A stretch of DNA of 64,000 bases from a virus (lineage: Duplodnaviria; Caudoviricetes), in the IMG/VR virus record IMGVR_UViG_2615840601_000001; one strand, written 5' to 3'. The notes under the pieces were generated by a model. That model searched no databases, was not told where the DNA came from, and was given only the letters and a program-made list of their open reading frames with translations. The position numbers were made by a program, and so were the translations under genes. Below are positions 4,754 to 63,399 of this stretch, one piece after another. Numbering within the stretch: the stretch's first letter is position 1; every line of letters starts with the position of its first letter.

Positions 4754-4785
4754 CAAAAAAATAGGGCGGGAAGACCCGCCCAAAA
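4754..4785 (-). terminator. GC-rich hairpin between MuA and MuB; terminator-like on the minus strand
   Basis: GGGCGGG-AAGA-CCCGCCC preceded by an A-run on + (U-tract on -). Confidence 0.45.
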
Positions 4786-4808
4786 AGTAAAAGACAAAGG
4801 GAATATAG

Positions 4809-5831: not shown

Positions 5832-5832
5832 T

Positions 5833-6779: not shown

Positions 6780-6785
6780 GGTGAA

Positions 6786-7282: not shown

Positions 7283-7475
7283 AATGAATGCCAGACGGGA
7301 AACTCAGTCAAATGACCTTTTCGTCTGGCAAGCGCGTGCCGAAATCGAGGCACAGCGAGCGGCGCTTCAAACCCGCATTGAAAAGCAATCGAAACACTCT
7401 CACAAGCGTGTCGCTCTGGTCACTCGCATTCAGGATTTGACGACGCAGCTTTTGGAATTGGAGACAAAACGATGA
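7275..7475 (+). CDS. Hypothetical coiled-coil protein
   Basis: Overlapping ORF in operon. Confidence 0.55.
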   Translation: MNEMNARRETQSNDLFVWQARAEIEAQRAALQTRIEKQSKHSHKRVALVTRIQDLTTQLLELETKR

Positions 7476-8511: not shown

Positions 8512-8514
8512 GCT

Positions 8515-8534
8515 GGTAACATTTGTTACCGGCT
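8515..8534 (+). promoter_or_regulatory. Late-promoter activator site 1 (lysis operon)
   Basis: GGTAACATTTGTTACCGGCT dyad; related motif recurs at 16305, 21185, 26836. Confidence 0.75.
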
Positions 8535-8585
8535 TTTTTGTTGCCTTGTTGGCGCATTCTAGGTGCATCAACAGAGGTAACCTGC

Positions 8586-9185: not shown

Positions 9186-9382
9186 TGAACGACGTCAAAC
9201 CCGCATTTGCATCCAAGATCAACTGGACCGCTATTCTCGGTGCCGCAGCCGGTCTTGGGACCGTATTTGGTCTCGATATTGATCCTGCTTTGCAGGCTAA
9301 AATCGTCGCGACAACCTCAGCCGTTTCGTCTGCTGCGATTGTGGTCTGGCGGACTTGGTACACCAGCAAAAAAGTGGGCTAG
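9185..9382 (+). CDS. Holin (two transmembrane segments)
   Basis: Small, hydrophobic, basic C-terminus, directly after endolysin. Confidence 0.7.
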   Translation: MNDVKPAFASKINWTAILGAAAGLGTVFGLDIDPALQAKIVATTSAVSSAAIVVWRTWYTSKKVG

Positions 9383-9648
9383 TGGTCGCTTTCTTCAAAG
9401 TTCTTTGGGCTGCCCTTCAATTGATTGCGACGGGCGCGCGTTACGCGGCGAAGCAGGAAAGCAACAAGGCTGCTCAACAGAAGCTTTTGTTGAACTTGAT
9501 CATTCGGATCACGGAGCAGATGAATGCGGCGATACAGGCGGGGCATGAATTTGATGCTGAGTTGCATGCCAATCCTGACGGGCTGCTCAATGATGACGGA
9601 TACAAGCGGCAAGCCGACAGAATTCGAGATGGCCCTAGCCAGCATTAA
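9382..9648 (+). CDS. Rz-like inner-membrane spanin
   Basis: N-terminal hydrophobic segment plus helical body; overlapped by a lipoprotein ORF. Confidence 0.6.
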   Translation: MVAFFKVLWAALQLIATGARYAAKQESNKAAQQKLLLNLIIRITEQMNAAIQAGHEFDAELHANPDGLLNDDGYKRQADRIRDGPSQH

Positions 9649-9832
9649 AACTCAAGAAAACAAGGACCGTCTGCCGTCTGTCATTTGCTCTGCCTTTGAG
9701 CCGCTGAGTTGGAGCGCAGAAGACACGAGGCAGACGGTTGTCGAGTTGAAACGGCACAATAGAAAATGGCTTCGGGTCTGTGATCCGGAGAAATATGGAA
9801 AACTTGCGAGAGGGCAAGATGACAAAAGCTAA
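9545..9832 (+). CDS. Rz1-like outer-membrane lipoprotein spanin
   Basis: Lipobox ILTGC, overlaps the 3' part of the Rz-like gene in another frame. Confidence 0.65.
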   Translation: MNLMLSCMPILTGCSMMTDTSGKPTEFEMALASIKTQENKDRLPSVICSAFEPLSWSAEDTRQTVVELKRHNRKWLRVCDPEKYGKLARGQDDKS

Positions 9833-10397
9833 AATCTCCTTATTTGAAATCATCAATTATCTTGCATGGGTTGCCTTGGTCATCCTTGTGTTTGTTCTCT
9901 ATTTTGCTTGCTTCATGATGATCATGAGCAGAGCAGAGGCTGGCGAGGCCCCCAAAATCTATCCCGGTCCATATATCGCTTACGTGACCGAAGTTGGCGT
10001 TTATGATGGCGACACAATCAACGCAGAGATCCACACCGCGCCGGGACAAATCCTCATGACCGGCCTGCGGGTGGCCGGAGTTGATACCCCCGAGATCAGG
10101 CGATCAGGTTGCCGAACGGACGCCATGAAAGCCGATGAGTTGGCGCTTGGACAGATCGCCAAAGCCTTTGTCGAAAAACGCTATCCGGTGGGAATGCAGT
10201 TTCGCGTTCGGGATCTTCAATTTGATAAATATGGTGGCCGCCATGTTGGCATTGTCGAACGCGAAACCGCGACTGGTTGGCAACGGCTCGATGATGAGTT
10301 GTTGCGCGTTCGCCCGAGAATAGCCGATCCGTATGGGATCAATAAGCCGGGTAAAGACAGCCTCAGAAAATCCAAGAGCTGGTGTGAGGGGCAATAA
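9819..10397 (+). CDS. Thermonuclease (staphylococcal nuclease family) with N-terminal membrane/signal segment
   Basis: VYDGDT, LRVAGVDTPE, DKYGGR motifs. Confidence 0.85.
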   Translation: MTKAKISLFEIINYLAWVALVILVFVLYFACFMMIMSRAEAGEAPKIYPGPYIAYVTEVGVYDGDTINAEIHTAPGQILMTGLRVAGVDTPEIRRSGCRTDAMKADELALGQIAKAFVEKRYPVGMQFRVRDLQFDKYGGRHVGIVERETATGWQRLDDELLRVRPRIADPYGINKPGKDSLRKSKSWCEGQ

Positions 10398-10723
10398 TGA
10401 CACTCCAAGAATTGTCATGGTCAATTGGGTCAGCCAGCGGCGCACTCAGCATCTTTCTTGTTGCCTTCGCCATCTGGCGGCAACCGAGCAAAGACAACTC
10501 CGACAAACTGCATGAACAAGAGCAGGAAATACAGGGCTTGGAGCGGCGCGTTGGACGGGTTGAAACGCAGCTTGAACATGTGCCTTCCAAGGATGATTTC
10601 ACGGCGTTGCAGCTTTCTCTTTCCGAACTGCGCGGCACGGTTTCCATGACTGAGGAAATTGTCAAAACGGTTCGCCGCACCACCCAAAATATCGACGATT
10701 GGCTTCGGGCCAAAGGGAGCTGA
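10397..10723 (+). CDS. DUF2730-like membrane coiled-coil protein
   Basis: TM segment then RVGRVETQLEHVPSKDDF; usual position before terminase genes. Confidence 0.7.
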   Translation: MTLQELSWSIGSASGALSIFLVAFAIWRQPSKDNSDKLHEQEQEIQGLERRVGRVETQLEHVPSKDDFTALQLSLSELRGTVSMTEEIVKTVRRTTQNIDDWLRAKGS

Positions 10724-10726
10724 ATA

Positions 10727-11029
10727 ATGTCATCCTATGCTGATTTTTCCGACTCCGTCTCTCGGTTGGTCATCCTCAAGGAGTTGGCCAATCAGGTCGA
10801 CAATCGCGCCAATACGACCATTCTCGAAATGGTTCTTGAGCAATTCGGGCAGCCTTCTACAGCCGCCTATGTTCGGAACCAATTGCGCTATCTTGAGCAG
10901 ACCGCACGAGCCGTCAAACTTGAAGACGTCGGGTCTGTGCTGGTGGCCGAACTGACGCAGACGGGACAAGACCATGTTGACCGCAAGATCGCATTGGAGG
11001 GTGTGAGACGTCCACGCCTGGGGGAATAA
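10727..11029 (+). CDS. Mu gp26-like winged-helix protein
   Basis: RLVILKEL...VRNQLRYLE...LTQTGQDHV...EGVRRP. Confidence 0.7.
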   Translation: MSSYADFSDSVSRLVILKELANQVDNRANTTILEMVLEQFGQPSTAAYVRNQLRYLEQTARAVKLEDVGSVLVAELTQTGQDHVDRKIALEGVRRPRLGE

Positions 11030-11032
11030 CCC

Positions 11033-11623
11033 ATGGCTAGAAAAGGACGCGGGCGGCTCTCGTCGATTGATCTTTGGCCCGATGAGGCCGACTACCTGAT
11101 TGAATGGGCCATCGAGGAGCTTGGAAAACATGACCGCACTCAGGTCGATATTCTTGCGGATCTCAATCAGAAAATCGACGAGCTAAACAGGTCCGGCGTA
11201 TTGGATGAACCGCTTGAACCGGTGACCTCCAGTACCTTCAATCGCTACACTTTGAGATTGGCCCGCGAGCAGCGCCGGAAGCGCGAGAACCAGTTGATTA
11301 TGAGTTCGTTGCACAAGGAACTCAATCCGCAAGATGCGGCCAAGCAAGATCAAGTCCTTATCGAGTTTCTCAAAACGCTCACATTCGAAATTCTGACCAG
11401 CTCGGGTGAAGGCAAGCTAACGCCCAAAAACGCGTTGGAGCTGTCCAACGCCCTCAAGTCTGTCATGCAGGCGGAGAATGTTTCGAACCGTCTGCGCAAG
11501 GAGATGCAAAAGGACTTCGACGCCAAGACTGAAGAAATCATCGACAAAGCTTCCAAGTCGGCAGGGCTGTCTTCAGGTCAGGTCGCACAATTGCGCCGTG
11601 ACTTCCTCGGCCTGAGAAAGTGA
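11033..11623 (+). CDS. Mu gp27-like (DUF3486) terminase small subunit
   Basis: GRGRLSSIDL, SSTFNRY; precedes large terminase. Confidence 0.8.
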   Translation: MARKGRGRLSSIDLWPDEADYLIEWAIEELGKHDRTQVDILADLNQKIDELNRSGVLDEPLEPVTSSTFNRYTLRLAREQRRKRENQLIMSSLHKELNPQDAAKQDQVLIEFLKTLTFEILTSSGEGKLTPKNALELSNALKSVMQAENVSNRLRKEMQKDFDAKTEEIIDKASKSAGLSSGQVAQLRRDFLGLRK

Positions 11624-11627
11624 GCCA

Positions 11628-13322
11628 ATGCTGACCGAACAGCAAGATCCTGATCGCGTTGCCGGTAATCCCGTCCTTGCCCGCGATGACAAGAACCTCT
11701 CTGACGACTTGCCGCGTGGCGCTGAAATTCCAAATGATCTGGATCCTTTTGCCGACGGGATTTTGATGGAGCATCAAAAGACTTGGCTTGAAGATGACAA
11801 CGATCTCAAGATTTGCGAGAAGGGCCGACGCACGGGGATCACTTTTGCAGAAGCGCTCGACGATACGCTGATCGCAGCAGCCGACGTTGCCGCTGGCGGG
11901 CAAAATGTTTTTTATATAGGCGATACCAAAGACAAGGGCCGCGAGTTTATCGGCTATGTCGCCCATTTTGCGCGGACCGTGCAAAAGGAAATGGTCGATA
12001 TCGAAGACGGTGTGTTTTTCGACATCGATGAGAATGGCAACAGCCGCGCCATTGCCACTTATGTCATTCGCTTCAAATCCGGTTTTCGTGCCGAGGCTCT
12101 ATCCTCCCGCCCCGCCAACATTCGCGGCCTTCAGGGTGTTGTCGTTATTGACGAAGCAGCGTTCCACAACGATGTGCGTGAGGTCATTGATGCGGTCAAC
12201 GCCCTGTTGATCTGGGGCGGCAAGATCCGAATAATCTCGACCCATAACGGGGTTCTGAATGCCTTTAATGAACTGATCCAAGAGGCCAAGGCAGAGCGCT
12301 CCAAGGGAAAGACCAACACCTGGTCAATTCACAAATATGCTTTTGCCGATGCCATCCGAAACGGGCTGTATAAACGTGTCTGTATGATCAAGGGCAAAGT
12401 CTGGAGCCAAGAGGCCGAGGACGAATGGGAAGCCAAGATCCGGGGCGCTTATGGGTCACGCAAAGCGTCCATGCGTCAGGAGCTGGATGCGATTGCCGCC
12501 GAGAGCGAAGGGCAGGCTCTGAGCCGCGTGCAAATCGAGCATTGTATGGTCAAGGGCATCCCGGTTGTTCGTTGGGAGCAGCCGGACAATTTCCGGGATA
12601 AGCCCGACGCCTATCGCAAGGCCACGGTCGATGCGTTTTGCGAAACCCAACTCCTGCCACATCTGCAAAAGCTCGACCCATATTTGCGGCATGTGTTGGG
12701 GCAGGATTTTGCGCGCAAGGGCGATGCCTCTTGCATCGATATCAAATCAATCAATCGCGACCTGACCCGGCAAAGCCGCCTTGGTGTCGAGTTGCGCAAT
12801 ATCCCGTTCGAAGAACAGCGCGACATTGTTTACTTCATCGTTGACCGCTTGCCTCGCTTTTCTGGCGGTGCGTGGGATGCGACCGGCAACGGTGCTTATC
12901 TCGCAGAGAAGGCCGCTCAAAAATATGGATCAAATGCCGTTGAGGTTCATTTCTCTCAAAGCTGGTACAAGGAAAACACACCTGCCTATATCGAGTCCTT
13001 TGGATCGGTTCGATCGAACCTGCTTCCGGCCGACGAGGATATCGTCAAGGACCATCAGGCGCTTGCCTATGTTGACGGCATCATCAAGGTGCCACAGGAC
13101 TTTCGCTTTAAGGGAACCGACGGGCACATGCGGCACGGTGACTATGCGCTGGCATCGATGCTGGCCTATTGGGTGAGCTTTCAGGACATTGCGGAATATA
13201 GCTATCAGTCGGTCTCGTCATTGAGCGCTGAAGGGAAATTGCATTCTGACGACGACGACAGCCCGAGGGGCACAATCTTCGGGCGGTCGTCTGTCTTTGG
13301 CAAAATGAGAGGGCTTTGGTAA
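11628..13322 (+). CDS. Mu gp28-like terminase large subunit
   Basis: EKGRRTGIT, VVIDEAAF, ISTHNG, GQDFAR, DATGNG, HGD. Confidence 0.93.
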   Translation: MLTEQQDPDRVAGNPVLARDDKNLSDDLPRGAEIPNDLDPFADGILMEHQKTWLEDDNDLKICEKGRRTGITFAEALDDTLIAAADVAAGGQNVFYIGDTKDKGREFIGYVAHFARTVQKEMVDIEDGVFFDIDENGNSRAIATYVIRFKSGFRAEALSSRPANIRGLQGVVVIDEAAFHNDVREVIDAVNALLIWGGKIRIISTHNGVLNAFNELIQEAKAERSKGKTNTWSIHKYAFADAIRNGLYKRVCMIKGKVWSQEAEDEWEAKIRGAYGSRKASMRQELDAIAAESEGQALSRVQIEHCMVKGIPVVRWEQPDNFRDKPDAYRKATVDAFCETQLLPHLQKLDPYLRHVLGQDFARKGDASCIDIKSINRDLTRQSRLGVELRNIPFEEQRDIVYFIVDRLPRFSGGAWDATGNGAYLAEKAAQKYGSNAVEVHFSQSWYKENTPAYIESFGSVRSNLLPADEDIVKDHQALAYVDGIIKVPQDFRFKGTDGHMRHGDYALASMLAYWVSFQDIAEYSYQSVSSLSAEGKLHSDDDDSPRGTIFGRSSVFGKMRGLW

Positions 13323-14854
13323 TGGCGGAACAACAGGCGGTTATTTACGACCTCTATGGCAAGCCGATGCGCGTGGAGAAAAAGGCGCTGGCGAGCGACA
13401 CGGTGCCGGTGCGCAATTTCACGTCAAAGTTCACAGAGAGCTTTTCGAGTGAGATTACGCCGCAAAGGCTCAAGCGCATTTTGGCCTCTGCCGCCAACGG
13501 ACAGCCCGACGAGTTCCTCAAAATGGCGGAACTCATGGAAGAAGAGGACGCCCATTATGCGGCCGTTCTGGGAAGTCGCAAACGGGCTGTCAGCTCAATA
13601 GAGCCCGTCATTGAACATGGCGGGGAAGGTCCAAAGGCGTCTGAGATTGGCGCCGCGGTGGAGCAGCTCATCGAGCAACCCCAGTTCTATGACATGTTGG
13701 ACGATGCACTCGACGCCTTGGGCAAGGGCTATGCTGTCATTGAACAGACTTGGAGCATCAATGGAAAGTATCTGATGCCGAGCGTGTTCACATGGCTTGA
13801 TCCACGCTTGTTCATGTTTGCCAAAGAGCAGCGCAAGACCTTGCGGCTGAAGGTTGACGGCGACGTGGACGGCGAAGAATTGATGGCCGGAAAATTCATT
13901 GTCCATATGCCACGGCTAAAATCAGGATTGCAGATCCGCACCGGGCTCGCTCGCGTTGCCGCTTGGGCCTATATGCTGAAGTCGTTCACCTTGCGCGGTT
14001 GGGCTGGTTACAATGAAGTGTTCGGCATGCCGTTACGGATTGGCAAGTACGACAAGGCGTCCAGCTATGAGGACCGGGCTACATTGTTGCGGGCGGTTGT
14101 TGGGATCGCCAATGACGCGGCGGGCATCATCGACAAGAATATGGATATCGAATTCATTTCCAACCCGTCGCGAGGTGGCGACTCTGTCTTTGAAAAATTT
14201 GCTGAGTATCTCGACAAGCAAATCTCGAAGGGCGTCCTTGGCCAAACCATGACGACCGATGATGGATCAAGCCTTGCGCAAGCCCAAGTGCACAATGAGG
14301 TGCGGATCGATATCCAGCAGTCCGACGCCCGGCAGCTTGCCGCTACGATCAACCGCGATGTGATCCGTCCCTTTGTCGATATCAACTTTGGTCAGCAAGA
14401 CCGTTATCCGAAATTCACGCTTCCGATCAGCGTGCCCGAAGACCTCAAGCTTATGTCTGAGACGCTTGAGAATTTGGTGCCGCTTGGCCTTGAGGTTAGC
14501 ATGGCAGAGGTCCGCGAACGGATCAGCTTTTCTGATCCCGACAAAAACGCCGTGCTTTTGAAGTCGCCGGGAAGCACCACGAAAGCGGAAAAGCTCAATC
14601 GCCAAGTGGCGCTGGCAAGGAAAAAACCTTCGATCGAGTTTGACGATATTGGCCTTGAGGAGCTTGATGCATGGGAAGAGCAGCTCGGCCCTATGATTGA
14701 GCCGATCCAATTGCTTGCAAAGAGCGCGGGGTCGAAAGAGGAATTTATCGCCGGGTTGGCCGAACTGGTGAGCACCATGGATGACGAAGCAATGTCTCAG
14801 GCGATTGTTGATGCGGGCCAGAAGGCGCACGCCTTTGGGGATGACAAAGGTTAG
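13322..14854 (+). CDS. Mu gp29-like portal protein (DUF935)
   Basis: EVFGMPLRIGKY, ISKGVLGQTMTT, AQVHNEVR. Confidence 0.93.
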   Translation: MAEQQAVIYDLYGKPMRVEKKALASDTVPVRNFTSKFTESFSSEITPQRLKRILASAANGQPDEFLKMAELMEEEDAHYAAVLGSRKRAVSSIEPVIEHGGEGPKASEIGAAVEQLIEQPQFYDMLDDALDALGKGYAVIEQTWSINGKYLMPSVFTWLDPRLFMFAKEQRKTLRLKVDGDVDGEELMAGKFIVHMPRLKSGLQIRTGLARVAAWAYMLKSFTLRGWAGYNEVFGMPLRIGKYDKASSYEDRATLLRAVVGIANDAAGIIDKNMDIEFISNPSRGGDSVFEKFAEYLDKQISKGVLGQTMTTDDGSSLAQAQVHNEVRIDIQQSDARQLAATINRDVIRPFVDINFGQQDRYPKFTLPISVPEDLKLMSETLENLVPLGLEVSMAEVRERISFSDPDKNAVLLKSPGSTTKAEKLNRQVALARKKPSIEFDDIGLEELDAWEEQLGPMIEPIQLLAKSAGSKEEFIAGLAELVSTMDDEAMSQAIVDAGQKAHAFGDDKG

Positions 14855-14857
14855 GCT

Positions 14858-16042
14858 GTGGCAGATTTCAGGATCCGCAATGCACCTTCCAAGGAGGTGA
14901 CCCGCTATCTAAGCGGCAAGGGCATCAAGCCCTCGTTTCATTGGCGAGATGTCAGTCCACGCGAGCATGCTTTCGCTTTCACCATCGCCAAGATGACCAA
15001 GTTGGATTTGTTGATCGACACACATGCGTCGCTCAACAAGGCTCTGACAGACGGCACGCCGTTCAAGGCATGGGCAAAAGAGATTGCACCGCACCTTGCC
15101 AAAGAGGGGTGGTGGGGCAAAAAGGAGATGATCGATCCAAAGACTGGTGAGACCATCATTGCGCAGTTGGGCAGCCCCCGAAGGCTTAAGACCATCTACT
15201 GGGCGAACACGCGCAGCGCACGCGCGGCGGGGCTTTGGGAACGTGCTCAACGCACCAAGAAAGCGTTGCCCTATTTTGCCTATCGGTTGGGGCCGTCTGA
15301 ACGCCACCGCCCCCACCATGCGTCGAAGGCCGGTGTGATCCTGCCAGTCGATGACCCGTTCTGGGATGCTTGGTTCCCACCGAACGGCTGGATGTGCAAA
15401 TGCTGGATAGAGCAGATTACGCGTTACCGGGCTAACAAGCTTGGCGGCGAGAGTGAGCGACCGGAAATCGAGATGGTTGAGGAAACCAACCCGCGAACCG
15501 GTGAGACAGTCAGCATCCCGAAAGGTGTGTCATTCGGTTGGCATGGCAACCCCGGCAAGAACCGCGCTCAAACACTGGTCGATAATCTTAATCTGAAACT
15601 GGAGAATGCCGGGGCAATCACTCCGGCCTTGCCCAAAGCCATTATCAAGGAATTTTGGCAATCAAGAGCGCCCGAGGCCTATAGCCAAATGTCAGAGCGC
15701 GTTCACTTGCCGGTGGCCTATGTGCCCAAATGGCAAGGCAAGCTTGATGGCAAGACACCTCTTGTTGTTGTTTCGTCCGATACCGTCTCAGTCAAGGTGG
15801 GCAAACACATGGCTGTTGAGGCAAGTGCGTTTGTCAACGTTCAGGACGTGTTGGAATTTGGTGAGGCCTATCAGAGAAAGGGACGACGAGACACGACGGT
15901 GTTTCATCGTGTTGATGGTGTATGGTGGGCAGTCGCTTTGCAGCGGTCCAAAGACGGATATTTCTATATCGCGACATTCTTCAGAACCAGCTCGGGCTAT
16001 GTGCAGCGGTTTCGAGATAACCATGTGTTGATTGATTTTTAG
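14858..16042 (+). CDS. MuF head morphogenesis protein with C-terminal PBECR-like nuclease extension
   Basis: AFTIAK, RLKTIYWAN, DDPFWDAWFPPNGWMCKC; extra ~150-aa C-terminal domain (VVSSDT..K..KH...FYIATFFR). Confidence 0.85.
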   Translation: MADFRIRNAPSKEVTRYLSGKGIKPSFHWRDVSPREHAFAFTIAKMTKLDLLIDTHASLNKALTDGTPFKAWAKEIAPHLAKEGWWGKKEMIDPKTGETIIAQLGSPRRLKTIYWANTRSARAAGLWERAQRTKKALPYFAYRLGPSERHRPHHASKAGVILPVDDPFWDAWFPPNGWMCKCWIEQITRYRANKLGGESERPEIEMVEETNPRTGETVSIPKGVSFGWHGNPGKNRAQTLVDNLNLKLENAGAITPALPKAIIKEFWQSRAPEAYSQMSERVHLPVAYVPKWQGKLDGKTPLVVVSSDTVSVKVGKHMAVEASAFVNVQDVLEFGEAYQRKGRRDTTVFHRVDGVWWAVALQRSKDGYFYIATFFRTSSGYVQRFRDNHVLIDF

Positions 16043-36178: not shown

Positions 36179-37387
36179 ATGCTTAAATCGCTTGAACTCT
36201 TTGCAGGTGCAGGCGGTCTTGTTCTAGGCACTGAACTGTCAGGTTTTCGTGCTGTTGCCGCCGTTGAGCACAACCGTTGGGCATGCGAGACGCTGATGGA
36301 CAACGCAACGCGTGAATACCCGCTTGTGCGAAATCTTCGAGTGGTCCAAAGCGATGTACGCGAATTCGATCTGGCTTCCATCCCCGAAGACATCGACCTA
36401 GTTTCCGGAGGCCCTCCATGTCAGCCATTTTCAATGGGTGGCCGTGCACGAGGTTTCAACGATGATCGGGACATGTTCTCGGCATTTGCAAGGATAGTCG
36501 CAGAGACGAAACCTCGAGCCTTTATTATTGAGAACGTTCGCGGTTTGACTCGACCAGCCTTTGAGAACTATGTCTCATATATCGAGCTCCGTATGAGTAT
36601 GCCCGAAGTGTTGCAGCGCCCTGGGGAGCTATGGCCTGACCATATGCGGCGACTAGAACGTGAGCGAACCTCCACTGGCGACAAGGGTATCCAGTATTCC
36701 GTGCTGAGGGAGCTTTTCGACGCTGCAGACTTTGGAGCACCACAGCGTCGGCATCGCGTATTCTTCGTAGGGTTTCGCCAAGATCAGAATGTTCACTGGA
36801 GTTTCCCTGAAGTCACGCACTCTCAAGATGGACTTATCTATGATCAGTGGGTTAGCGGGGAATATTGGGAACGGCATGGCATTTCAAGGAAGGAACGTGG
36901 GACTGTCCCCGATCGTCTTGTTAAACGAGTTGAGGCACTTCGCGGTCGAAACGATCATATTGGCGCGCCTTGGAGAACAGTTCGAGATGCACTGCGAACT
37001 CTACCTGAACCGCACAAGGATGGCAGCGATACGCTAGGTATTGCAAACCATCGGTTTCAGCCAGGTGCACGACCGTATCCGGGCCATACTGGGTCTCCCC
37101 TTGATGCTCCCTCAAAAGCATTGAAGGCTGGAGATCATGGAGTTCCTGGAGGGGAGAACATGTTGGTTCGCCCCGATGGTTCCTGTCGTTATTTCACCGT
37201 TCGTGAAGCAGCTCGAATTCAGGGTTTCCCTGATGGATATGTCTTCCATGGAGCGTGGTCCGAAACCATGCGGCAGCTTGGGAATGCGGTGCCTGTCATG
37301 CTCGCCCAAGCGATTGCGTCTTCCGTTGCGGAGCGACTTCTCGAGGCCGATGTAGAGACGCTGTCTAAATGCCAGAGGATGCACTGA
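36179..37387 (+). CDS. Type II R-M C5-cytosine methyltransferase
   Basis: LFAGAGG, GGPPCQPFS, ENVRG, QRRHRVF, FTVREAARIQGFP, LGNAVP. Confidence 0.95.
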   Translation: MLKSLELFAGAGGLVLGTELSGFRAVAAVEHNRWACETLMDNATREYPLVRNLRVVQSDVREFDLASIPEDIDLVSGGPPCQPFSMGGRARGFNDDRDMFSAFARIVAETKPRAFIIENVRGLTRPAFENYVSYIELRMSMPEVLQRPGELWPDHMRRLERERTSTGDKGIQYSVLRELFDAADFGAPQRRHRVFFVGFRQDQNVHWSFPEVTHSQDGLIYDQWVSGEYWERHGISRKERGTVPDRLVKRVEALRGRNDHIGAPWRTVRDALRTLPEPHKDGSDTLGIANHRFQPGARPYPGHTGSPLDAPSKALKAGDHGVPGGENMLVRPDGSCRYFTVREAARIQGFPDGYVFHGAWSETMRQLGNAVPVMLAQAIASSVAERLLEADVETLSKCQRMH

Positions 37388-38046
37388 TGGCGCAGGAGGA
37401 ATCAGTAACTAGAGAGTTTGAACCTTTCGACCCACTCGCTCGTACGAACCTCGCCGCATCAGCGGCAGAAGCTCTTTTGGATACCGCGCCTGAACCGCTT
37501 AACACCTTGGTGCCCTTTTGGGGGGCAGGCGTTTACGCGATCTACTATACTGGAGACTTTCCGGCATACAGCTGGATCGCGAAGTCCAACGACAATGGTA
37601 GGTGGCTCGCGCCTCTTTATGTGGGCAAGGCTATTCCAAGTGGAGGTCGCAAAGGTAGTTCAGGACTTGAACCCCCGCGTGGAAAGTACCTGTTCAATCG
37701 GTTGAACCAACATGCCGAAAGTGTCAGGGCGGCGGAAAACCTAAATATCGAGCATTTCCATGCTCGATTCCTTGTAGTTGTTGATATTTTTATCCCTCTC
37801 ATCGAGAATCTGATGATTTCACGTTTTGCTCCTATCTGGAACAATCCTGTGGATGGCTTCGGAAATCACGATCCAGGTGCAGGGAGACGAAAAGGAATGC
37901 GCCCGCGTTGGGATGTCCTACATCCCGGTCGGCGATGGGCAGACTTATGCGGTCAACGCCCAGAGACGCAGGAAAGCATCGCTAGGGAAGTCGAGGCATT
38001 GCTCTCAGCTCGTGCAGTGCCTGATCAAAGAATGATTCAACCGTAG
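37387..38046 (+). CDS. Eco29kI-family GIY-YIG restriction endonuclease
   Basis: GAGVYAIYYTG, LYVGKA, RLNQH, E..MI....P.WN..DGFGNHDPG.GR; TGATG-coupled to methylase. Confidence 0.9.
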   Translation: MAQEESVTREFEPFDPLARTNLAASAAEALLDTAPEPLNTLVPFWGAGVYAIYYTGDFPAYSWIAKSNDNGRWLAPLYVGKAIPSGGRKGSSGLEPPRGKYLFNRLNQHAESVRAAENLNIEHFHARFLVVVDIFIPLIENLMISRFAPIWNNPVDGFGNHDPGAGRRKGMRPRWDVLHPGRRWADLCGQRPETQESIAREVEALLSARAVPDQRMIQP

Positions 38047-55406: not shown

Positions 55407-55910
55407 ATGCCATTCCTCAGTTTCAGATATGACTATGCCTCCGCAGATCAGGAGATCCGCCGTCTGATCGACAAGATCGAAGACAAGGCCGCTATTCATC
55501 GTGTCATCGGCATGGCGCTCTATGATCAGACCATGGACCGGTTCGAGCGTGAAGAGAGCCCGGATGGCAACAAATGGGCACCGCTCGCCCCACTTACCCT
55601 CTCTAACCGCCGCCAGCCCAGGGGCATCTTGCGCGACAGCGGTGAGTTGATGCGCTCCATCCATTTTGAAGCCTCATCCTCCCGCACGGAGGTCGGCACC
55701 AATCTCAACCATCCAAAGGTCTGGGTCATGCAGCGCGGCGCAACGATCAAGCCGCGCCGGTTCAACTCCCTGCGCATCCCTGTCTCACGCGGGGCTGAAG
55801 GCTATGTCTTCAGCAAGGGCGTGAAGATCCCCGCACGGCCTTATATCGGTATCGGACGGCAGGATGAAGAGGTGATCCGGGAGGAGCTGGAGGGGTATTT
55901 TGGGGACTGA
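55407..55910 (+). CDS. Mu gpG-like virion morphogenesis protein
   Basis: RFEREESPDGNKWAPL, ILRDSGELMRSI, IPARPYIG. Confidence 0.9.
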   Translation: MPFLSFRYDYASADQEIRRLIDKIEDKAAIHRVIGMALYDQTMDRFEREESPDGNKWAPLAPLTLSNRRQPRGILRDSGELMRSIHFEASSSRTEVGTNLNHPKVWVMQRGATIKPRRFNSLRIPVSRGAEGYVFSKGVKIPARPYIGIGRQDEEVIREELEGYFGD

Positions 55911-56054
55911 TGATATGGTCGGAACGGCCCAGAGCCGCCGTTCGCCAAGACCCTCTCACCAAAAGCCAGCGTCCCCAAAGCAGGCATACGTGGCTGTGCT
56001 CCGGTTCAGGCTTCTTCGAAAAGCCAGCAAGCAAGTCGAGGCGTTTCAATGTTC

Positions 56055-56573
56055 TTAATAAGGCAGTTTTAAAACGAAATGAAAGAGATTCCAAAACTTG
56101 CTTTCACCCGAATAGACCCGTCCTTCGAACCATTCAGCCGCTTTATAAACGGCATTGAAGCCCGCTCGTTCGTAGATGATATTGGCTTCATCAAAGCTGA
56201 TGCATTTTGCTATTGGACTCGCTGCCCAATCATCATCTAGGCCCAATAGGGTCACGTAAATGGTGCCGTTATCATTCAATAGGGATTTTAAGCGACCGAG
56301 GAACTCCTCGAGGGAATAGGTGATATGGTGAGAAACGAGAGATGCAACGATAAGATCGTAGCGCTGAGTTGTGGTAAAATCTTCAAATCTGCTTTGAATG
56401 AAATTGATCTCTTTGTCTGAAGCCAATTCTTCAAAAACCACAGGATCAATTGCATCAACGTTATGGCCCTTATTTGCGAAATACCTCGCCATCCCTCCCT
56501 CTCTTGCACCAACATCTAGCACTCTACCTGGTTTAGGTAATTCAATTCTCTCTATAATATCGGCGCGTATCAT
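56055..56573 (-). CDS. Class I SAM-dependent methyltransferase (cargo)
   Basis: RVLDVGAREG, VDAID, YDLIV, LLNDNG.I. Confidence 0.85.
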   Translation of the reverse strand: MIRADIIERIELPKPGRVLDVGAREGGMARYFANKGHNVDAIDPVVFEELASDKEINFIQSRFEDFTTTQRYDLIVASLVSHHITYSLEEFLGRLKSLLNDNGTIYVTLLGLDDDWAASPIAKCISFDEANIIYERAGFNAVYKAAEWFEGRVYSGESKFWNLFHFVLKLPY

Positions 56574-56950
56574 ACAGGCATCTTTCTCGACTGTTTGTTA
56601 TTTGCAAGGCTGTCTCTTGCGGTGTCTTGAAGAAACCATAGCCTGTACGAGGAAAACGTCTCGAGCCAGCGTTTAGTTTTGCTAACTCACAGCTGCAAAC
56701 GGTCCTGCCACTTTTAGTGTCCAATTTGGGCTCGAACCGGACTGGTGCAGTGCATCATCATGCGACAACGCTCATCCAGGTTGGTGATTTGCAATCGCGG
56801 CCCCTTAAGAGACACTCAGCGATAAGCTGTCATACTGCGGCGCTCCCCTCCCATCCGGTCATTTGCCGCAGATGTGCAATCTCAGGGGAGATGCATATTC
56901 ACGATGCGGACTTTATGGAACTACAGCGCGGTCTGTGGCAAGATCTTGCA

Positions 56951-57673
56951 ATGATAGAATTCCGCTCCCTTTCCGATGACCATCCCGACCTCGCGCATTC
57001 CCCGCTGCTGCACGGTGCGCTCCTTACACTGCAATATGCGCAGAAGCACGGATCAATCGCTCTGACCAAATCTAAGGCCTTCAAGCGCATTTTCGTCCAT
57101 TGGGCCGTCGAGAATTTCAATTGGCCAGGCAAAAGCGCAGAAGAGATGTTCCGCTATAACAAGGTAATCAATGAATATGAGTTTCCTCCGCTCGAGATTA
57201 TCCATTTCCTGCTCATCTCCCTGCGCCTGGGACGTCACTTCAAGGGTGAGTTTCGACTGACCAAGCGGGGCATAAAACTGGCGCAATCTCCTGGCCATCT
57301 GTTTGCCGAGTTGATCCCATACTTTGTGCTTCAGATGGATCACTCTTCTTATGCACGCTTTGAAAACCGTCCCTTCGGGAAGTGGGAGGTCTGGATGAAT
57401 GTGATTAACGTCGAAGCCGATCAAGGCACGACCGAGGCTGCCTTGTTCGAAATCTTCTACGGTGAGCCGCAAGATTGGCACACTGCAGGGTGGAGAGAGA
57501 TGGCTGTGTTTTCAGCCTGTGTACTTCGTCCGCTCGAATGGGCTGGGTTGCTGGTGGAGACACGTGAAGAAGGAGGCAGCAAGCCTGTATGTCATGTGTT
57601 CAAAACCCCACTCTGGCGCAGCGCGATCAACCTTGATACCGACAACATGCTGCGGCCAATATCCGTTCAATGA
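56951..57673 (+). CDS. Hypothetical cargo protein
   Basis: 240-codon ORF from MIEFRSLSDDHPDL; no motif recognised. Confidence 0.65.
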   Translation: MIEFRSLSDDHPDLAHSPLLHGALLTLQYAQKHGSIALTKSKAFKRIFVHWAVENFNWPGKSAEEMFRYNKVINEYEFPPLEIIHFLLISLRLGRHFKGEFRLTKRGIKLAQSPGHLFAELIPYFVLQMDHSSYARFENRPFGKWEVWMNVINVEADQGTTEAALFEIFYGEPQDWHTAGWREMAVFSACVLRPLEWAGLLVETREEGGSKPVCHVFKTPLWRSAINLDTDNMLRPISVQ

Positions 57674-57863
57674 GAGATGCTTTTTCGGCTACCAAGATGT
57701 GGCGCTTTTAGCGTTTGCGGCCCCAAGCGGTCGAGTGCGATGCGTAATGATGAAAGCCGCTCATCTAGGCTTGCGTTTTGCATTCGCGGCCCAAAGCTGC
57801 CTTTCGTGCACCTCGCAATGAACGTCCGGTTTGTCAGCCGAAGCGGAAATGCTAACTTAGATG

Positions 57864-57891
57864 GGTGGCAAGCGTTCGCTCTATTGCCACC
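57864..57891 (-). terminator. Hairpin just 3' of DRT3 ncRNA
   Basis: GGTGGCAA/TTGCCACC stem with inner AGCG/CGCT; lacks a strong U-tract. Confidence 0.45.
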
Positions 57892-57920
57892 ACTTTGTGA
57901 CACTTTCGGATCGAAAAATG

Positions 57921-58044
57921 GATAGTTGGGCGTGCCTGTATGTGTGTGGTCCGCAAAAGCGTAAACTTAGAAGGAACGCAGAGGCCTAGTAATGGGTCCC
58001 GTCGCGTCCAGCTCAGATATCTCAGGCAACCGCCCACAATTATC
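57921..58044 (-). ncRNA. DRT3-associated ncRNA with ACACACA tract
   Basis: Directly after drt3b stop; 5' TGGGCG..TGCCTG pairs with 3' CAGGCA-CGCCCA; ACACACA (57941-57947) adjacent to the 3' arm. Confidence 0.8.
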
Positions 58045-59979
58045 TTAGACCGCCGAGTATACAGGCTGCAACTGCTTTCTTCTCAAAAAATGAGACGTTC
58101 TTCCGGCGTTCCAATCGACGAATGCAACGTGTTTTGCGAGCTTTTCGATATCATCGTCCGATAGGTCATCGACGCCACAAACTTCCTTTATTAAGGCCTT
58201 TCTTTTGCTAACCTTAATATAGGGACATCCTATAATATCGCTAAACATCAGGTATACCTCTGAACTAGTCCTGAGTTCTGTTTTGTTTCTACGAACCTGT
58301 TTGAGAGCCAACTTGGAGATGGTTTCGAGCGCCCTATCAACATCAACAGACGGCGATGCTTGCGCCAACAGAAAAATCATCGCAATAAATGAAAAGTACC
58401 CAATGCTTTTCCTTTTAAGCAACATGGTGCACAGCTCAATAACAGGGGGCTGGGATAAAAACAGGTCACTATTAACCGAAGCACCAAGCACAAGCAGATT
58501 ACAAATTTCTAAGGAAATGTCTTTCTCAATCTTTTCCGGTTTATAGGTAGCAACTAGCTCCGTTATCTCATAAACGAGATAGCTATCTAGCGCTTCAGCT
58601 TCTGACAATCCGATTGCAGTCTTGAAATTCTTTAAGCTCTCGAGAATTTGGAAAGATTTATAGATCGGAGCAACGCGAAAATCTGACGCCAAAGAATAGA
58701 ATAGAATTCGCAGAATGGATCTAACTCTATTAATGGCGTCAATTTTTGTTTTAGTCGTAAAACTTTCTGCCGACTTTAATACAGCTTTAACGGCCTTCCC
58801 TATCTGAAAATAGATCGAGCCGGTTACTTCGTTGAAAGTTGCATCTGTATCACGAACAACTAGCCTTAACTCTTCAAGTAGGCTTCGCATGTTGCGGCGT
58901 ATCTCTGTTTGTTCGTCCTCGTCATCAACTAACGGCCTTTTTGCTTCGGCTAGCAACCTAGTGGTAATATCTCCGATGCCTTGTTTTGCTCGGGTGATGT
59001 TGGTCACAAAAGGGCGGCGCAAATTTTCAAGTTTTCCCTCGTTCGGATACAGCTTATACTCTTCTAAACAAGTTTCTACAGCTCGATTCAGTTCGTCGAG
59101 TACAGCTTCATTCCGTGTAAAGAGGAAAAAGTCATCGACATATCTACGGAAAGTGTAATCACGCCCCTCGCGAAGGTGTTTATCCATTTTTAAGATTATA
59201 TTTCTATCAATCTTCTGAAAGATTATCTCCGCAAAGACTCGTGATATCTCGGGTCCAACAACAATTCCATTTGTTTCATTGTAATTGGACCGTTGCATCA
59301 GTGCATCGAACCGGCCCTCGAAGGTATACTTGTTTGCTTGGGCTTTAGAATAAGGTTTATCCTTCACAGCCCATGTCACTGAATGGGTATAGATGTTAAA
59401 AAAGCACTTAGTTACATCAAGCTTTCTGAGATACTGAAATCGGCTCTCTAGCCTTAGAAGTTCGTTAGAGCCATAAAACTTGTCGAGCAAATTGTATTTT
59501 TTGACTGAAAAAAAGGATGGAGCAAAATTAATATCTAAGCGTCCATCTTCCGGCGCTACATGTGCTAGTCCAAGCTTCTTCGCATTCCCTGCTTTCTTCA
59601 ATTCTTCCTTCGAAACTTCCGGCAAAACTCTGTACGGAGCTCGAAGCGAGTATCTACTTTCACTGCATTCCGAAATGATTGTATTCGAATATCCTACTAA
59701 AAAAGTTGCCATTCTGATCTGGTGAAGTGGATGAACAATACTGAGTGTATTGAAGCCTCTGGCTCCTTTGCGAATCTGGTAGCTGAAAGGAATTGTGTAA
59801 GTCTCTGGCCTCAAAGGCCTCCTGTAGTCCCCATTTAAAAACTCTTGTGCTTTAACAGAAAGCCGAGACTTTCTTAGCTCGGATACGAAGAGAAATTCGT
59901 TGGAAAAGGTGACAGGAACCTCGTATGGCAGTGTTTCAGTCAAGAGAGGTCGCAATTTCCGTGCGTGTGGTTCAAGCAT
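58045..59979 (-). CDS. drt3b: Antiviral reverse transcriptase Drt3b-like
   Basis: LTETLPYEVPVTFSN N-terminus, LDVTKCF.NIYTHS..WA, NYNETNGIVVGPEISRVFAEII, RYVDD, helical C-terminus. Confidence 0.88.
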   Translation of the reverse strand: MLEPHARKLRPLLTETLPYEVPVTFSNEFLFVSELRKSRLSVKAQEFLNGDYRRPLRPETYTIPFSYQIRKGARGFNTLSIVHPLHQIRMATFLVGYSNTIISECSESRYSLRAPYRVLPEVSKEELKKAGNAKKLGLAHVAPEDGRLDINFAPSFFSVKKYNLLDKFYGSNELLRLESRFQYLRKLDVTKCFFNIYTHSVTWAVKDKPYSKAQANKYTFEGRFDALMQRSNYNETNGIVVGPEISRVFAEIIFQKIDRNIILKMDKHLREGRDYTFRRYVDDFFLFTRNEAVLDELNRAVETCLEEYKLYPNEGKLENLRRPFVTNITRAKQGIGDITTRLLAEAKRPLVDDEDEQTEIRRNMRSLLEELRLVVRDTDATFNEVTGSIYFQIGKAVKAVLKSAESFTTKTKIDAINRVRSILRILFYSLASDFRVAPIYKSFQILESLKNFKTAIGLSEAEALDSYLVYEITELVATYKPEKIEKDISLEICNLLVLGASVNSDLFLSQPPVIELCTMLLKRKSIGYFSFIAMIFLLAQASPSVDVDRALETISKLALKQVRRNKTELRTSSEVYLMFSDIIGCPYIKVSKRKALIKEVCGVDDLSDDDIEKLAKHVAFVDWNAGRTSHFLRRKQLQPVYSAV

Positions 59980-61261
59980 TCAACCAAGCCTTTCTTATTT
60001 CGGAAACAGTGGCACGCTTGAAGCGCACGGTCATCTTGTTTGTGAACCCCTTGTAAAAAGAGAGGTTCTTTAACTCTGCCAACTGCTCTGGCGTGAACGA
60101 AGCTTGAATTTCCGTTTTGAACTGGCTGTTACCTCCCCATAAAAGGGATGATAAAAACCCATCTAACTCTTTCAGTTCGATTGGAGCAACTGAGACATTC
60201 TCAGGACCTTGCCGTCTGTATTGATACAAGCCGCATTTCCGATAATTGAAGTATATTCCGGTCCTGATTCTGGCTTTTTTCGATCCGTGAGTATGACCCG
60301 TCTTTCTAATTTCAAAATTGCTGGTGAGAAACTTCACTCGGTTTAGCAGCAAAGCAGCGTTCTTGTCTTTTTGGAATGCTTTCAAGCTAAGTATGATACG
60401 TGTCTTTCTGACTTTGATTTTGTCTTTAGATATCTTGACCAAGACTTGTCGGCTCATTCGAGCTCGAATTCCATTTGAGCATTCGAACGAATAACCGAGA
60501 TAGGTGAACGAGCTGGCTGGCTTTTTGCAAGGATTTTTGTCTGAATCTGGTATCGACTCTAGAAAAGCATCTTCCGTCTTTGAGTTCAGTTCGAAATTTG
60601 GGCTTAGGATCTCCTTGATTTTGGCAAGTGCTGGATCGACCTTTTGCGTTGAAAACAACAAAATGTCATCTGCGAAGCGAAAATATCGGTAAACCCCTTC
60701 GATCTCCATGACTTCTCGATCAAATTTACGCAGCGCAAGTTCGGCGAAGGTGGTGCTGAGGCCAAGTCCACGAGGGATGCCAGATTGTGTTCCCCCAAGT
60801 AGGCCCGACGTTTCTAGAACTCTCAGGACTGTCTTTACGTGTGAGTGTGTCTTTGTTGAACTAAGAATCTCTGCCAGTATTGCCTTTGCATCTACATTTT
60901 CGAAGAAAGATTTTATATCACACCGCAATACATAAAATGGTGAAGCGTCGAACAGAGTTTCTAAGACGCCGTTAACCACAGTGTCGCGGCTAGCCGAGCT
61001 AACACCATATTGTTTGTTCAAAGACCTCGCGGTCGCTCGTAGAGCGAGCGCACCGTGAAAGTTGTTAATCAAAAGCAGCTTTCGCCCTTTGGAAATCGGG
61101 ACCGAGCGGTGATGAAAAGTGATTGTGCCATCATCCACCTGTTCGCGTATCTGAGAAAGAAGAGCCTCGCAATCCAATGCCAAATCGACACCAAACTTCC
61201 TGGAGTCGCCGACCCGAATACAGCTTCTAAGATATTTTTCAGAAAATGGACTAATCTGCAT
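59972..61261 (-). CDS. drt3a: Antiviral reverse transcriptase Drt3a-like
   Basis: DIKSFFE, GIPRGLGLS, RFADD, FTYLGY, R.KFLTSN, GIYFNY; 8-nt overlap with second RT. Confidence 0.88.
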   Translation of the reverse strand: MQISPFSEKYLRSCIRVGDSRKFGVDLALDCEALLSQIREQVDDGTITFHHRSVPISKGRKLLLINNFHGALALRATARSLNKQYGVSSASRDTVVNGVLETLFDASPFYVLRCDIKSFFENVDAKAILAEILSSTKTHSHVKTVLRVLETSGLLGGTQSGIPRGLGLSTTFAELALRKFDREVMEIEGVYRYFRFADDILLFSTQKVDPALAKIKEILSPNFELNSKTEDAFLESIPDSDKNPCKKPASSFTYLGYSFECSNGIRARMSRQVLVKISKDKIKVRKTRIILSLKAFQKDKNAALLLNRVKFLTSNFEIRKTGHTHGSKKARIRTGIYFNYRKCGLYQYRRQGPENVSVAPIELKELDGFLSSLLWGGNSQFKTEIQASFTPEQLAELKNLSFYKGFTNKMTVRFKRATVSEIRKAWLNA

Positions 61262-61747
61262 TATTGTTTACTTCTTATCAAAAGGTTGTAAATATTTCCG
61301 ATACAATTTGATCCGCATGCAAGTTAGTTGAGCGATGTAAGCATAACAATACCAGAAATTGCACAAAAACAGCAATGTGACTAAAACTGTCTTCGGTGCA
61401 GATAGCAGCAAAAGACTGCCTCCCGCCCGACCATGACGCAGCTATCAAAGCGAGCTTAAAGTTCCCGAGAATGTCCGCTTCTGCTGGCTACCATCAGGAT
61501 TTTGCATCTGCGGGAAATGTCCGCAATCCGCCCACAGGCGTCGATCATCAAGCTTTCCGACAATTTGTCTCTGTCGCGTTTTGTACCCCCTCCCAGCCCC
61601 CACCATACCCAAAATTTCCGCGAGCCGCGTTAAAGGCGCGTTAGAAAGCCATTGAGGGCCTATTGTTGCGGTTGGGTTGCCTCTCATCTGCCGTTGGTGA
61701 TAGAAGGGCGATAGCTTCCCCCCAAAAATTGACTTCATATGCCGCCC

Positions 61748-61762
61748 GGAACAGTTCCGGCG
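61748..61762 (+). promoter_or_regulatory. Late-promoter activator site (head operon), prophage 2
   Basis: CCGGAA-CAG-TTCCGG dyad; matches 48346. Confidence 0.7.
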
Positions 61763-61818
61763 AGCGCCATCATTTTACCTGCCATGTTGCCATCAACTTG
61801 ATCCCAAGGAGATGCGGC

Positions 61819-62985
61819 GTGGCCAAGGTTGATGACAAAGACAAAACGAAGCGCATTGAGGTGTTCCGTCCGGGCACGTTTACGGCGATGGGCGGCATGG
61901 CGTTCAGTGCGTCTGCTGAAGACCTGGCTGGTCTGGCTCAGCGTTATGATCCTGACGCATATCCTGTGCCTGTTGTTGTTGGCCATCCCAAGACTGACGA
62001 TCCCGCCTATGGCTGGGTGAAGGCCTTTTCCTATGATGATGAGGCGGATCGCCTCTTTGCCGAGATCGGTGATCTGGAGCCACAGTTCGCCGATGCGGTT
62101 GCGCAGCATCGCTACAAGCGCGTCTCCATGGCTTTTTATAAACCAGGTGCAAGCTCCAATCCTGCGGGCGATGCTCTCTATCCCAAACATGTCGGGTTTC
62201 TTGGGGCTGTGGCTCCTGCTGTGCCCGGTTTGAAGCCGGTGGAATTTGCCGGTGAGGCGGATGATGTCATCGCCGTCGAGTTTGCCGATGCCGCCTTCAA
62301 GGATGTTGCCAGCATCTTTCGCCGTTTCCGTGACTGGCTGATCGCCAACGAAGGTCTGGAGACCGCAGACAATGTGCTGCCCGACTATCAGATCCGCTGG
62401 ATCGACGATGCTGGCGACCTGCCTCCCGACATTCCTTCCCCCGAATTTTCTGAAGACGAGGAACCCACCATGGCCCTGAAGCCCGCCAAATCCAAACCCG
62501 CCCAGACCGCCACTACACAACCAAGCGAAGCTGAGCTTACCTTTGCTGAGCGAGAGGCCGAGCTGAACGCCCGTCAGGCAGAGCTGGACGAGCGGGAAGC
62601 CGAACAGCGCCATGAGACCCATGTCGCCTTTGCCGAAGGCCTTGTCGATGATGGCCGCCTGCCATCGGGCAACCGGGCCAAGGTGGTGGCCCTGCTCGAT
62701 GGCGCTTCTGAGCTTGATGCGGACGAGATCGAATTTGCCGATGGCAACGAGACCAAGAAAGCCGATCTGGTCGATCTCTTGAAAGACGTGCTCAAGACCC
62801 AGCCTCCCATCATCCAGTTTGGCGAGATGGATCTGGGTGATGCACCGGACGGCAAGGAGCCTGATCCCGAGGTCATCGCCAATGAGGCGGTTGCCTTCCA
62901 GGTCTCCCAGCGTGAAGCGGGGATTGAGGTCTCCACGTCCGACGCCATTTCCCACATCCGCCAGAAGCGTGGCCTGACAGACTAA
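61819..62985 (+). CDS. Prohead protease/scaffold (internal GAGG-ATG at 62470)
   Basis: IEVFRPG, PVVVGHP..DDPAYGWV, HVGFLGA..PAV.GL; AAGGAG RBS before GTG. Confidence 0.88.
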   Translation: MAKVDDKDKTKRIEVFRPGTFTAMGGMAFSASAEDLAGLAQRYDPDAYPVPVVVGHPKTDDPAYGWVKAFSYDDEADRLFAEIGDLEPQFADAVAQHRYKRVSMAFYKPGASSNPAGDALYPKHVGFLGAVAPAVPGLKPVEFAGEADDVIAVEFADAAFKDVASIFRRFRDWLIANEGLETADNVLPDYQIRWIDDAGDLPPDIPSPEFSEDEEPTMALKPAKSKPAQTATTQPSEAELTFAEREAELNARQAELDEREAEQRHETHVAFAEGLVDDGRLPSGNRAKVVALLDGASELDADEIEFADGNETKKADLVDLLKDVLKTQPPIIQFGEMDLGDAPDGKEPDPEVIANEAVAFQVSQREAGIEVSTSDAISHIRQKRGLTD

Positions 62986-63021
62986 GCCGCACCCATTCCC
63001 CCTAATCTGGAGACGAGAACA

Positions 63022-63399
63022 ATGCAGCAGCATGTAGGGCTGATCAAGAATTTCATGGCAGAGGGGCTTATTGAGAAGCGCCGTCTGGTCACCTTCGGGT
63101 CTGAAGAAGGCAATGTTGCCAGGGCTGGCATCGGCGATGTGCTGCTTGGCACGACCGCGATCCGTGGTGCCCCTGCCGCCAATAGCCGAGTGGATGTCTG
63201 TCTCGACAATATCCGCGAAGTCGAATTTGGCGGTGTTGTCGCCTATGGCGATCCGATCACCTCTGATGCCAATGGCCGCGCCATCAAGGCGGAACCGGCA
63301 GAAGGCAGTTCGGTTCCGATCATCGGACGCGCCATGGAAGGTGCCAAGGTTGGCACCATCGGGCATGTCTTCATTCAGCCTGCCATCCTTCACGGCTAA
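63022..63399 (+). CDS. DUF2190-like head decoration protein
   Basis: VEFGGVV..GD.ITSDANGRA, IIGRAME. Confidence 0.8.
   Translation: MQQHVGLIKNFMAEGLIEKRRLVTFGSEEGNVARAGIGDVLLGTTAIRGAPAANSRVDVCLDNIREVEFGGVVAYGDPITSDANGRAIKAEPAEGSSVPIIGRAMEGAKVGTIGHVFIQPAILHG

Follow-up and report, generated by a model that had tools for sequence, protein, structure and literature searches.

A divergent DRT3 ncRNA with a probable AC-repeat template

The structured stretch at positions 57921–58044 (minus strand) of the window, which is the whole 64 000 nt stretch of viral DNA analysed, can be assigned with a probability of about 0.9 as the ncRNA of a DRT3 system in which an AC tract templates poly-(dTdG). The ncRNA, its ACACAC template and repeat synthesis of the telomerase type have been described before, and the element in the window is a divergent DRT3 RNA. 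The evidence comes from the locus and its relatives: the two neighbouring genes are identified and have kept their catalytic, gating and priming residues, and the RNA has a predicted fold, a conserved motif and a stem that covaries. The exposed AC repeat is very probably a template copied into GT-repeat DNA, a reading that draws on sequence comparison with the system characterized in Escherichia coli (EcoDRT3).

An ncRNA found downstream of drt3b and carrying a conserved 5′-ACACAC-3′ loop has been described (Wang, Yoneyama et al. 2026, PMC13174585). For EcoDRT3, the same source reports that poly-(dTdG) synthesis by Drt3a requires the ncRNA, dGTP and dTTP, that mutation of ACACAC abolishes both the product and defence, and that read-through into the adjoining stem-loop shortens the products. 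The partner protein EcoDRT3b makes untemplated poly-(dCdA), with Y666 as the priming residue and E22 and R241 as gates, and RecBCD holds the resulting duplex in check, with lambda Gam triggering immunity (PMC13174585). Deng et al. 2026, as covered in two reviews (PMC13213688, PMC13314766), came to the same conclusion on templating and described a 6:6:6 complex. An exposed CACACA motif in the ncRNAs of UG3+UG8 systems is recorded in Mestre et al. 2022 (PMC9226505). An earlier note on this DNA, made by a model from the sequence, had stated that DRT3 requires a downstream ncRNA and had mentioned an ACACAC template copied repeatedly into poly(GT). Both statements are in print, the former in Gao 2020 as cited in PMC9226505 and the latter for EcoDRT3 in PMC13174585 and, via the reviews, in Deng et al. 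2026.

Little is added here to the mechanism, as the RNA, the template and repeat synthesis have been published. The locus adds a divergent alphaproteobacterial clade (three sequences), the RNA of which is compact at about 124 nt, and the survey adds a check on about 70 mostly metagenomic loci, at which the motif and the closing-stem topology are near-universal.

Organization of the locus

On the minus strand, drt3a (59972–61261) is followed by drt3b (58045–59979) and then by the structured stretch of approximately 124 nt. The two genes are co-oriented and overlap by 8 nt, equal to the overlap in an E. coli locus (L100), and both reading frames are intact. The stop codon of drt3b, TAA, is at 58047–58045 and the ncRNA starts at the next base on the same strand. 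The 429 aa product of drt3a is a class 2 UG3 reverse transcriptase, the presumed user of the ncRNA template, and was identified as Drt3a by PADLOC (E 4.4e-97); it matches the solved E. coli protein (PDB chain 9z6y_A, ‘Drt3a’) with an E value of 2.5e-28. The 644 aa product of drt3b is a class 1 UG8 reverse transcriptase, identified by PADLOC as Drt3b (E 2.5e-160) and matching PDB chains 26cz_A (1.8e-81) and 9z6y_H (6.6e-78). The Pfam domain RVT_1 was found in both.

A promoter-like site (TTTACA, 18 nt, AACAAT) directly upstream of drt3a at 61263–61292 on the minus strand is a consensus match only, and is weak because four such sites were found where 5.3 are expected by chance. An ORF of 552 aa at 61735–63393 on the minus strand gives the appearance of a third gene of the operon. 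This ORF, which runs antisense to the genes for the head protease and the scaffold and matched no family, is probably spurious.

Conserved residues of the reverse transcriptases

By alignment, the catalytic motifs are intact in both Drt3a and Drt3b, and the priming and gating residues of Drt3b are present. Residues E22, R241, the YVDD motif and Y666 of EcoDRT3b correspond to E20, R247, Y280–D283 and Y641, respectively, when the window Drt3b is aligned to the solved chain, so that the partner proteins of the two systems have their catalytic, gating and priming residues in common. In an alignment of 11 homologues, R247, YVDD (Y280, D282, D283) and Y641 are invariant and E20 falls in a column containing E or D. 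Homologues of Drt3b from outside the clade of the window are 25–31 % identical to it.

Two differences from EcoDRT3 were seen, namely FADD for YVDD as motif C of Drt3a and N77 for R71 in Drt3b. Motif C among the related loci is YVDD in 31, FVDD in 21 and FADD in three, the FADD loci making up the clade of the window, and F is the first residue of the motif in 24 of the 55 motif-bearing homologues. N77 is found in the window and in one relative from a Pseudooceanicola genome (L001), and the other nine homologues have R at this position; a further arginine, R74, is located near N77. In EcoDRT3b, R71 stacks on the incoming dA and the R71A mutant retains partial activity in vitro (PMC13174585), so N77 is variation rather than a disqualifying change. 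Because Drt3b has kept the residues listed above, it appears built to make the strand complementary to the product of an AC template, and from this we strongly infer that 57941–57948 is the template.

Structure of the ncRNA element

The 5′ side of the closing stem is made up of GATA (58044–58041), TGGGCG (58036–58031) and TGCCTG (58028–58023), and the partner arms are CAGGCA (57938–57933), CGCCCA (57932–57927) and TATC (57924–57921). This pairing had been described in the earlier note, and the MFE fold of 57915–58050 (−39.7 kcal/mol) reproduces the three helix segments exactly, with GACCACACACAUA left single-stranded. The inner segments form helix P1, whose 5′ arm, UGGGCG-GU-UGCCUG (58023–58036), and 3′ arm, CAGGCA-CGCCCA (57927–57938), were found in both the MFE fold and a three-sequence consensus, with a duplex energy of −25.8 kcal/mol in the window. 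All 12 pairs of the inner segments are kept in L001 and in a metagenome contig (L015), with substitutions on both sides at three of the 12. GAUA/UAUC, the outer segment, is absent from the three-sequence consensus and is therefore unsupported.

The sequence ACCACACACATA occupies 57950–57939 and ends one base ahead of the 3′ arm. It includes the alternating tract CACACACA (57941–57948), with ACACAC at 57947–57942, which is unpaired in the MFE fold and lies 3 nt (AUA) ahead of the P1 3′ arm. The tract is thus where the earlier note had placed it, just 5′ of the 3′ arm. A small hairpin, CGC-UUUU-GCG (57952–57961), lies 4 nt (GACC) 5′ of the tract, and two of its three pairs have changed on both sides. 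By analogy with the stem-loop beside the EcoDRT3 template, this hairpin is a candidate template-boundary element.

The central hairpin P2 (approximately 57973–58009) has nine consensus pairs, with 100 % of cells paired and one pair changed on both sides, and its loop region, GGAyyC..UUAACAGGCCU, is conserved in the window, L001 and L015. Just inside P1, the single-stranded GAGAUAU at 58016–58022 belongs to a block of 15 successive positions without variation in the three clade members, and it may be a protein contact. The clade members differ by indels of 1 nt and 20 nt inside the element, making a conserved small ORF unlikely. An 8-mer, UCUAAGUU, that is present inside the ncRNA recurs about 90 nt downstream and was treated as a chance repeat.

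A UUUUU run at 57914–57918, 2 nt past the end of the element, is a possible 3′-end signal. It was below the criteria of the terminator scan, which returned no terminator-like site on the minus strand at 57900–58050. A Rho-independent terminator was considered and rejected, as the stem that precedes the run closes a multi-helix structure of about 110 nt, not a short hairpin. A search of 57000–62000 with Rfam 15 found no relevant family, the only match being a chance hit to Histone3 (E 0.091).

Taken by itself, the fold exceeds the chance expectation by a modest margin only (z = −2.09, with seven of 200 shuffles as stable or better); the weight of the evidence lies in the comparison with other loci.

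Conservation of the motif downstream of drt3b

A scan of species-representative genomes yielded 14 drt3b loci and a scan of metagenomes 80 more; with the window, these 94 loci make 95 sources. Twenty-four of the 95 were dropped, either because the drt3b frame runs off the contig (10) or because the protein is shorter than 560 aa from the start of the match (14). At least 250 nt of downstream sequence was available for 68 of the 71 loci retained, most of which are metagenomic. The AC tract proved to be conserved: ACACAC is present on the coding strand within 250 nt downstream of the full-length drt3b at 66 of the 68 loci, compared with 39 of 1786 control windows of 250 nt drawn from both strands of the same loci. 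The alternating tract is 6–10 nt long across the 68 loci, with 7 nt (CACACAC) the commonest length and 8 nt in the window. The base that precedes the tract is G or C in 53 of the 68, ending the alternation.

The motif was missing in only two of the 68 loci, L003 and L043, both of which have a full-length drt3b. ACACGC-like variants were seen in L003 (4372–4770) and nothing similar in L043 (2934–3330). These could represent variant templates, relocated RNAs or decayed systems. A drt3b relative in a Yoonia plasmid record (L002), 53 % identical, looks broken: its match has an in-frame stop at the tenth codon and ends at residue 491, and ACACAC is missing downstream.

For the 55 loci with 55 nt or more between the stop codon and the motif, duplexes were computed between the first 75 nt or so around the stop and the 35 nt that follow the motif. 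The mean duplex energy was −25.7 kcal/mol, against −15.65 (sd 5.05) for permuted 3′ partners, and 35 of the 55 loci lay beyond the permuted 5th percentile. A hairpin ending 0–5 nt before the motif was found in 45 of the 55 loci and in 28 of 55 control windows, a modest enrichment. Single-sequence folds with wide flanks are noisy; of 64 loci folded in this way, 33 left every base of the motif unpaired and 41 paired no more than one of its bases, and in four other loci the closing arm was missing.

In 13 loci (L070, L072, L075, L077–L079, L081, L084, L089–L092 and L094) ACACAC is located only 26–51 nt past the drt3b stop, and most of these have no clear closing arm in single-sequence folds. They may have another RNA layout, for example with the 5′ arm in the coding region or with the body of the RNA 3′ of the template.

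Covariation and covariance models

The window RNA could be aligned only with those of L001 and L015, the three sequences showing 60–64 % identity; the corresponding Drt3b proteins are 53–54 % identical to that of the window. A closer relative (L016, 84 % identical) is a 1162 nt fragment that lacks the downstream region. Three helices with a total of 24 pairs make up the three-sequence consensus, in which 98.6 % of cells are paired and six pairs have substitutions on both sides. Sliding the 3′ partners by 1–3 columns as a control left 0–2 such pairs, and three of 500 shuffles reached the observed values, though with three related sequences such shuffle controls overstate the significance.

A covariance model of the kind envisaged in the earlier note was built from the three clade sequences (R1). 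It places the element, whose predicted limits are 57921–58044, at 57921–58042 and has this single match in the 5.11 Mb genome. The model does not generalize beyond the clade. Default searching of the 95 sources recovered only the three training sequences, and with filters off, a search of 20 other loci gave two true sites (E 0.39 and 7) among 25 mostly spurious matches. A single alignment of 29 diverse ncRNAs (MAFFT and RNAalifold) was no more informative, yielding 0 consensus pairs and aligning only the motif. As neither approach generalizes, cluster-wise alignments and the duplex permutation test were used instead, and membership of the family rests on position, motif and topology, not on a shared model.

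The cluster-wise alignments, made separately and including nine clusters other than that of the window, lend independent support. A closing helix between the region past the stop codon and the bases directly 3′ of the tract was recovered in nine of 10 clusters, with 3–21 compensatory pairs in each. The consensus of one cluster (C4) pairs part of the tract. In another cluster (C2, comprising L010 and L062) the AC tract of both sequences has a potential partner in a GUGU located some 20 nt upstream, and only two of the six template bases are unpaired in the folds; this pairing is either a fold artefact or a sequestered state of the template. Taken across the loci, there is strong comparative evidence that the motif is enclosed by a conserved, covarying structure with an adjoining stem-loop, the predicted stem-loop being modestly supported.

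Relationship to known systems

The EcoDRT3 ncRNA, like that of the window, is found directly 3′ of drt3b on the same strand. In both, an unpaired ACACAC is located in a loop beside a stem-loop, with the 3′ arm of a closing stem following at a distance of 2–3 nt (…GCACACACUAAGGG… in the E. coli locus L100 and …CCACACACAUACAGG… in the window). Beyond the motif, however, the two RNAs have no detectable sequence similarity, and the proteins match only distantly. For the RNAs, this is the pattern reported for groups 1–17 of the UG3+UG8 ncRNAs, which have a globally conserved, exposed ‘CACACA’-like motif at a variable distance from the end of UG8 and little sequence conservation between groups in the account of Mestre et al. 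2022 (PMC9226505), and the present survey shows the same. None of the E. coli genomes searched contained a near match to the window locus; E. coli drt3 loci were found by a distant search with L005 and used for comparison only. In one of them (L099, 1–4898, on the chromosome) DRT3 comes directly after psu and ogr/delta-like genes, a P4-like satellite context, and its ACACAC is 235 nt past the stop within a long closing stem.

The ncRNAs of DRT9 and DRT10 are like that of DRT3 in that a short template within a structured RNA is copied repeatedly by class 2 UG reverse transcriptases, into poly-dA in DRT9 and tandem repeats in DRT10, and the position of the DRT3 motif is described as analogous to that of the DRT9 and DRT10 templates (PMC13174585). 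They differ from DRT3 in the repeat unit, in the partner proteins (a SLATT effector in DRT10) and in having a single reverse transcriptase. Telomerase RNA works in a like manner, with a short internal template reused by slippage and a flanking helix that limits copying, and the analogy has been drawn in print. The telomerase-like repeat synthesis that the earlier note had proposed for this tract is supported as a parallel with published work. In contrast to DRT3, telomerase adds its product at chromosome ends, and DRT3 makes a second, protein-templated strand; the likeness is one of function, not of membership.

Proposed mechanism and alternative explanations

Expression of the RNA, its binding by the proteins, templating, the DNA products and the trigger are taken from the published work in E. 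coli, and on that model the window system would function as follows. The RNA would be transcribed with or just after drt3b and fold into a closed multi-helix structure, in which the 12 bp P1 would hold CACACACA between the small 5′ hairpin and the P1 3′ arm. Drt3a would bind this RNA and copy the AC tract over and over into poly-(dTdG), slipping back by dinucleotide microhomology, and the flanking CC and hairpin would set the point at which copying stops. The complementary poly-(dCdA) would be made by Drt3b with no nucleic-acid template, primed on the C-terminal Y641 and gated by E20 and R247. Annealing of the two strands would give a GT/AC duplex DNA, which would accumulate when a phage disables the end-processing nuclease of the host, leading to abortive infection.

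It is conceivable that the element is a genuine partner RNA of DRT3 in which the AC tract is a recognition or attachment site for protein, or a scaffold, and is not copied. A recognition or attachment role was proposed for the exposed ‘CACACA’ in Mestre et al. 2022 (PMC9226505), a structural role for an RNA at the centre of the 6:6:6 complex is attributed to Deng et al. by the reviews (PMC13314766, PMC13213688), and the locus itself offers nothing that separates binding from templating. The distinction is made by the EcoDRT3 experiments, where poly-(dTdG) requires the ncRNA with dGTP and dTTP and is abolished by mutations in the template (PMC13174585), and by the Drt3b of the window, which keeps the residues that specify a complementary poly-(dCdA) and would make sense only if the tract is copied. 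We therefore consider an uncopied tract very improbable.

We consider it extremely unlikely that the structure merely ends the drt3 operon, as its 3′ untranslated region or its terminator, or is a relic of decay, with a chance AC tract and a system that does not work in this host. The U5 run after the element and the modest z-score of the fold would fit, as would a foreign, low-GC cassette in a host without detectable RecC. However, chance would not account for a motif found at 66 of 68 loci and in 39 of 1786 control windows, nor for a stem that covaries, and decay is at odds with two intact reverse transcriptase frames and conserved catalytic, gating and priming residues. The terminator scan, moreover, found no minus-strand site at the element. 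A DRT3 ncRNA with a copied AC tract is thus the preferred reading.

Prophage context and the trigger

The DRT3 genes form a reverse-oriented cargo cassette in the head-gene module of a Mu-like prophage, between a Mu G-like gene (55407–55910) and the head protease gene (61663–62985; PHROG 2.6e-103). Within 56000–61500, the GC content drops to 0.41–0.45 over drt3a and drt3b, the phage genes on either side being at about 0.57, and this drop would fit horizontal transfer of the cargo in the recent past. A drt3b gene was found in only one other of the 22 genomes of the host's family, at 34 % identity, and DRT3 is absent from 20 of the 21 genomes other than that of the host.

The transposable prophage covers 38599–64000 of the window and 1–15300 of a further locus (L098). 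Its genes include those for a CI-type repressor, MuA-like, MuB-like and DUF3164 proteins, endolysin, terminase, portal, Mu F-like and Mu G-like proteins, head protease, scaffold and major head, followed by tail sheath, tape measure, baseplate and two tail-fibre genes. In Mu-like phages of Pseudomonas, anti-CRISPR genes are carried in a plasticity region near the position of this cassette, a statement supported in part by PMC4378225.

The host differs from that of EcoDRT3 in having AddAB where the E. coli host has RecBCD. No match to RecC (PF04257) was found in the host genome, which is 99.98 % complete, and an alphaproteobacterial-type AddB (TIGR02786, 1039.6 bits) is encoded at 2185918–2189025 of contig C1. 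Without detectable RecC in the host, the trigger published for RecBCD and Gam cannot operate in its literal form, and AddAB would be the obvious candidate to take the place of RecBCD. Mu Gam (PF07352) was not found in the host genome and there was no Gam-like PHROG among 14 ORFs of the early region, and the idea that DRT3 responds to the prophage's own Gam was dropped for want of a match in either.

One speculative and rather doubtful reading is that, if AddAB restrains the DRT3 duplex DNA in this host, DRT3 is here a prophage-borne guard of AddAB that fires when a superinfecting phage blocks this nuclease. The carrier phage might then have to lack gam so as not to trigger the system itself on induction, and N77 of Drt3b and the compact RNA could be adaptations of the lineage. 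Whatever the trigger, the published model was built on RecBCD and lambda Gam, and a host with AddAB only and carriage by a Mu-like prophage make the locus a natural test case for it; these are the only points that might repay follow-up.

Two further genes accompany the cassette. One (56055–56573, minus strand) encodes a SAM-dependent methyltransferase of 172 aa (Pfam Methyltransf_23, 2.2e-15). The other (56717–57673, plus strand) encodes a 318 aa protein with no Pfam, PHROG or PADLOC match, for which the nearest Atlas clusters carry Y4jL_N, a lead only. Just left of the prophage repressor, at 36179–38046 on the plus strand, genes for a cytosine-5 DNA methylase and an Eco29kI-family restriction endonuclease make up a type II restriction-modification pair at or beside the end of the prophage.
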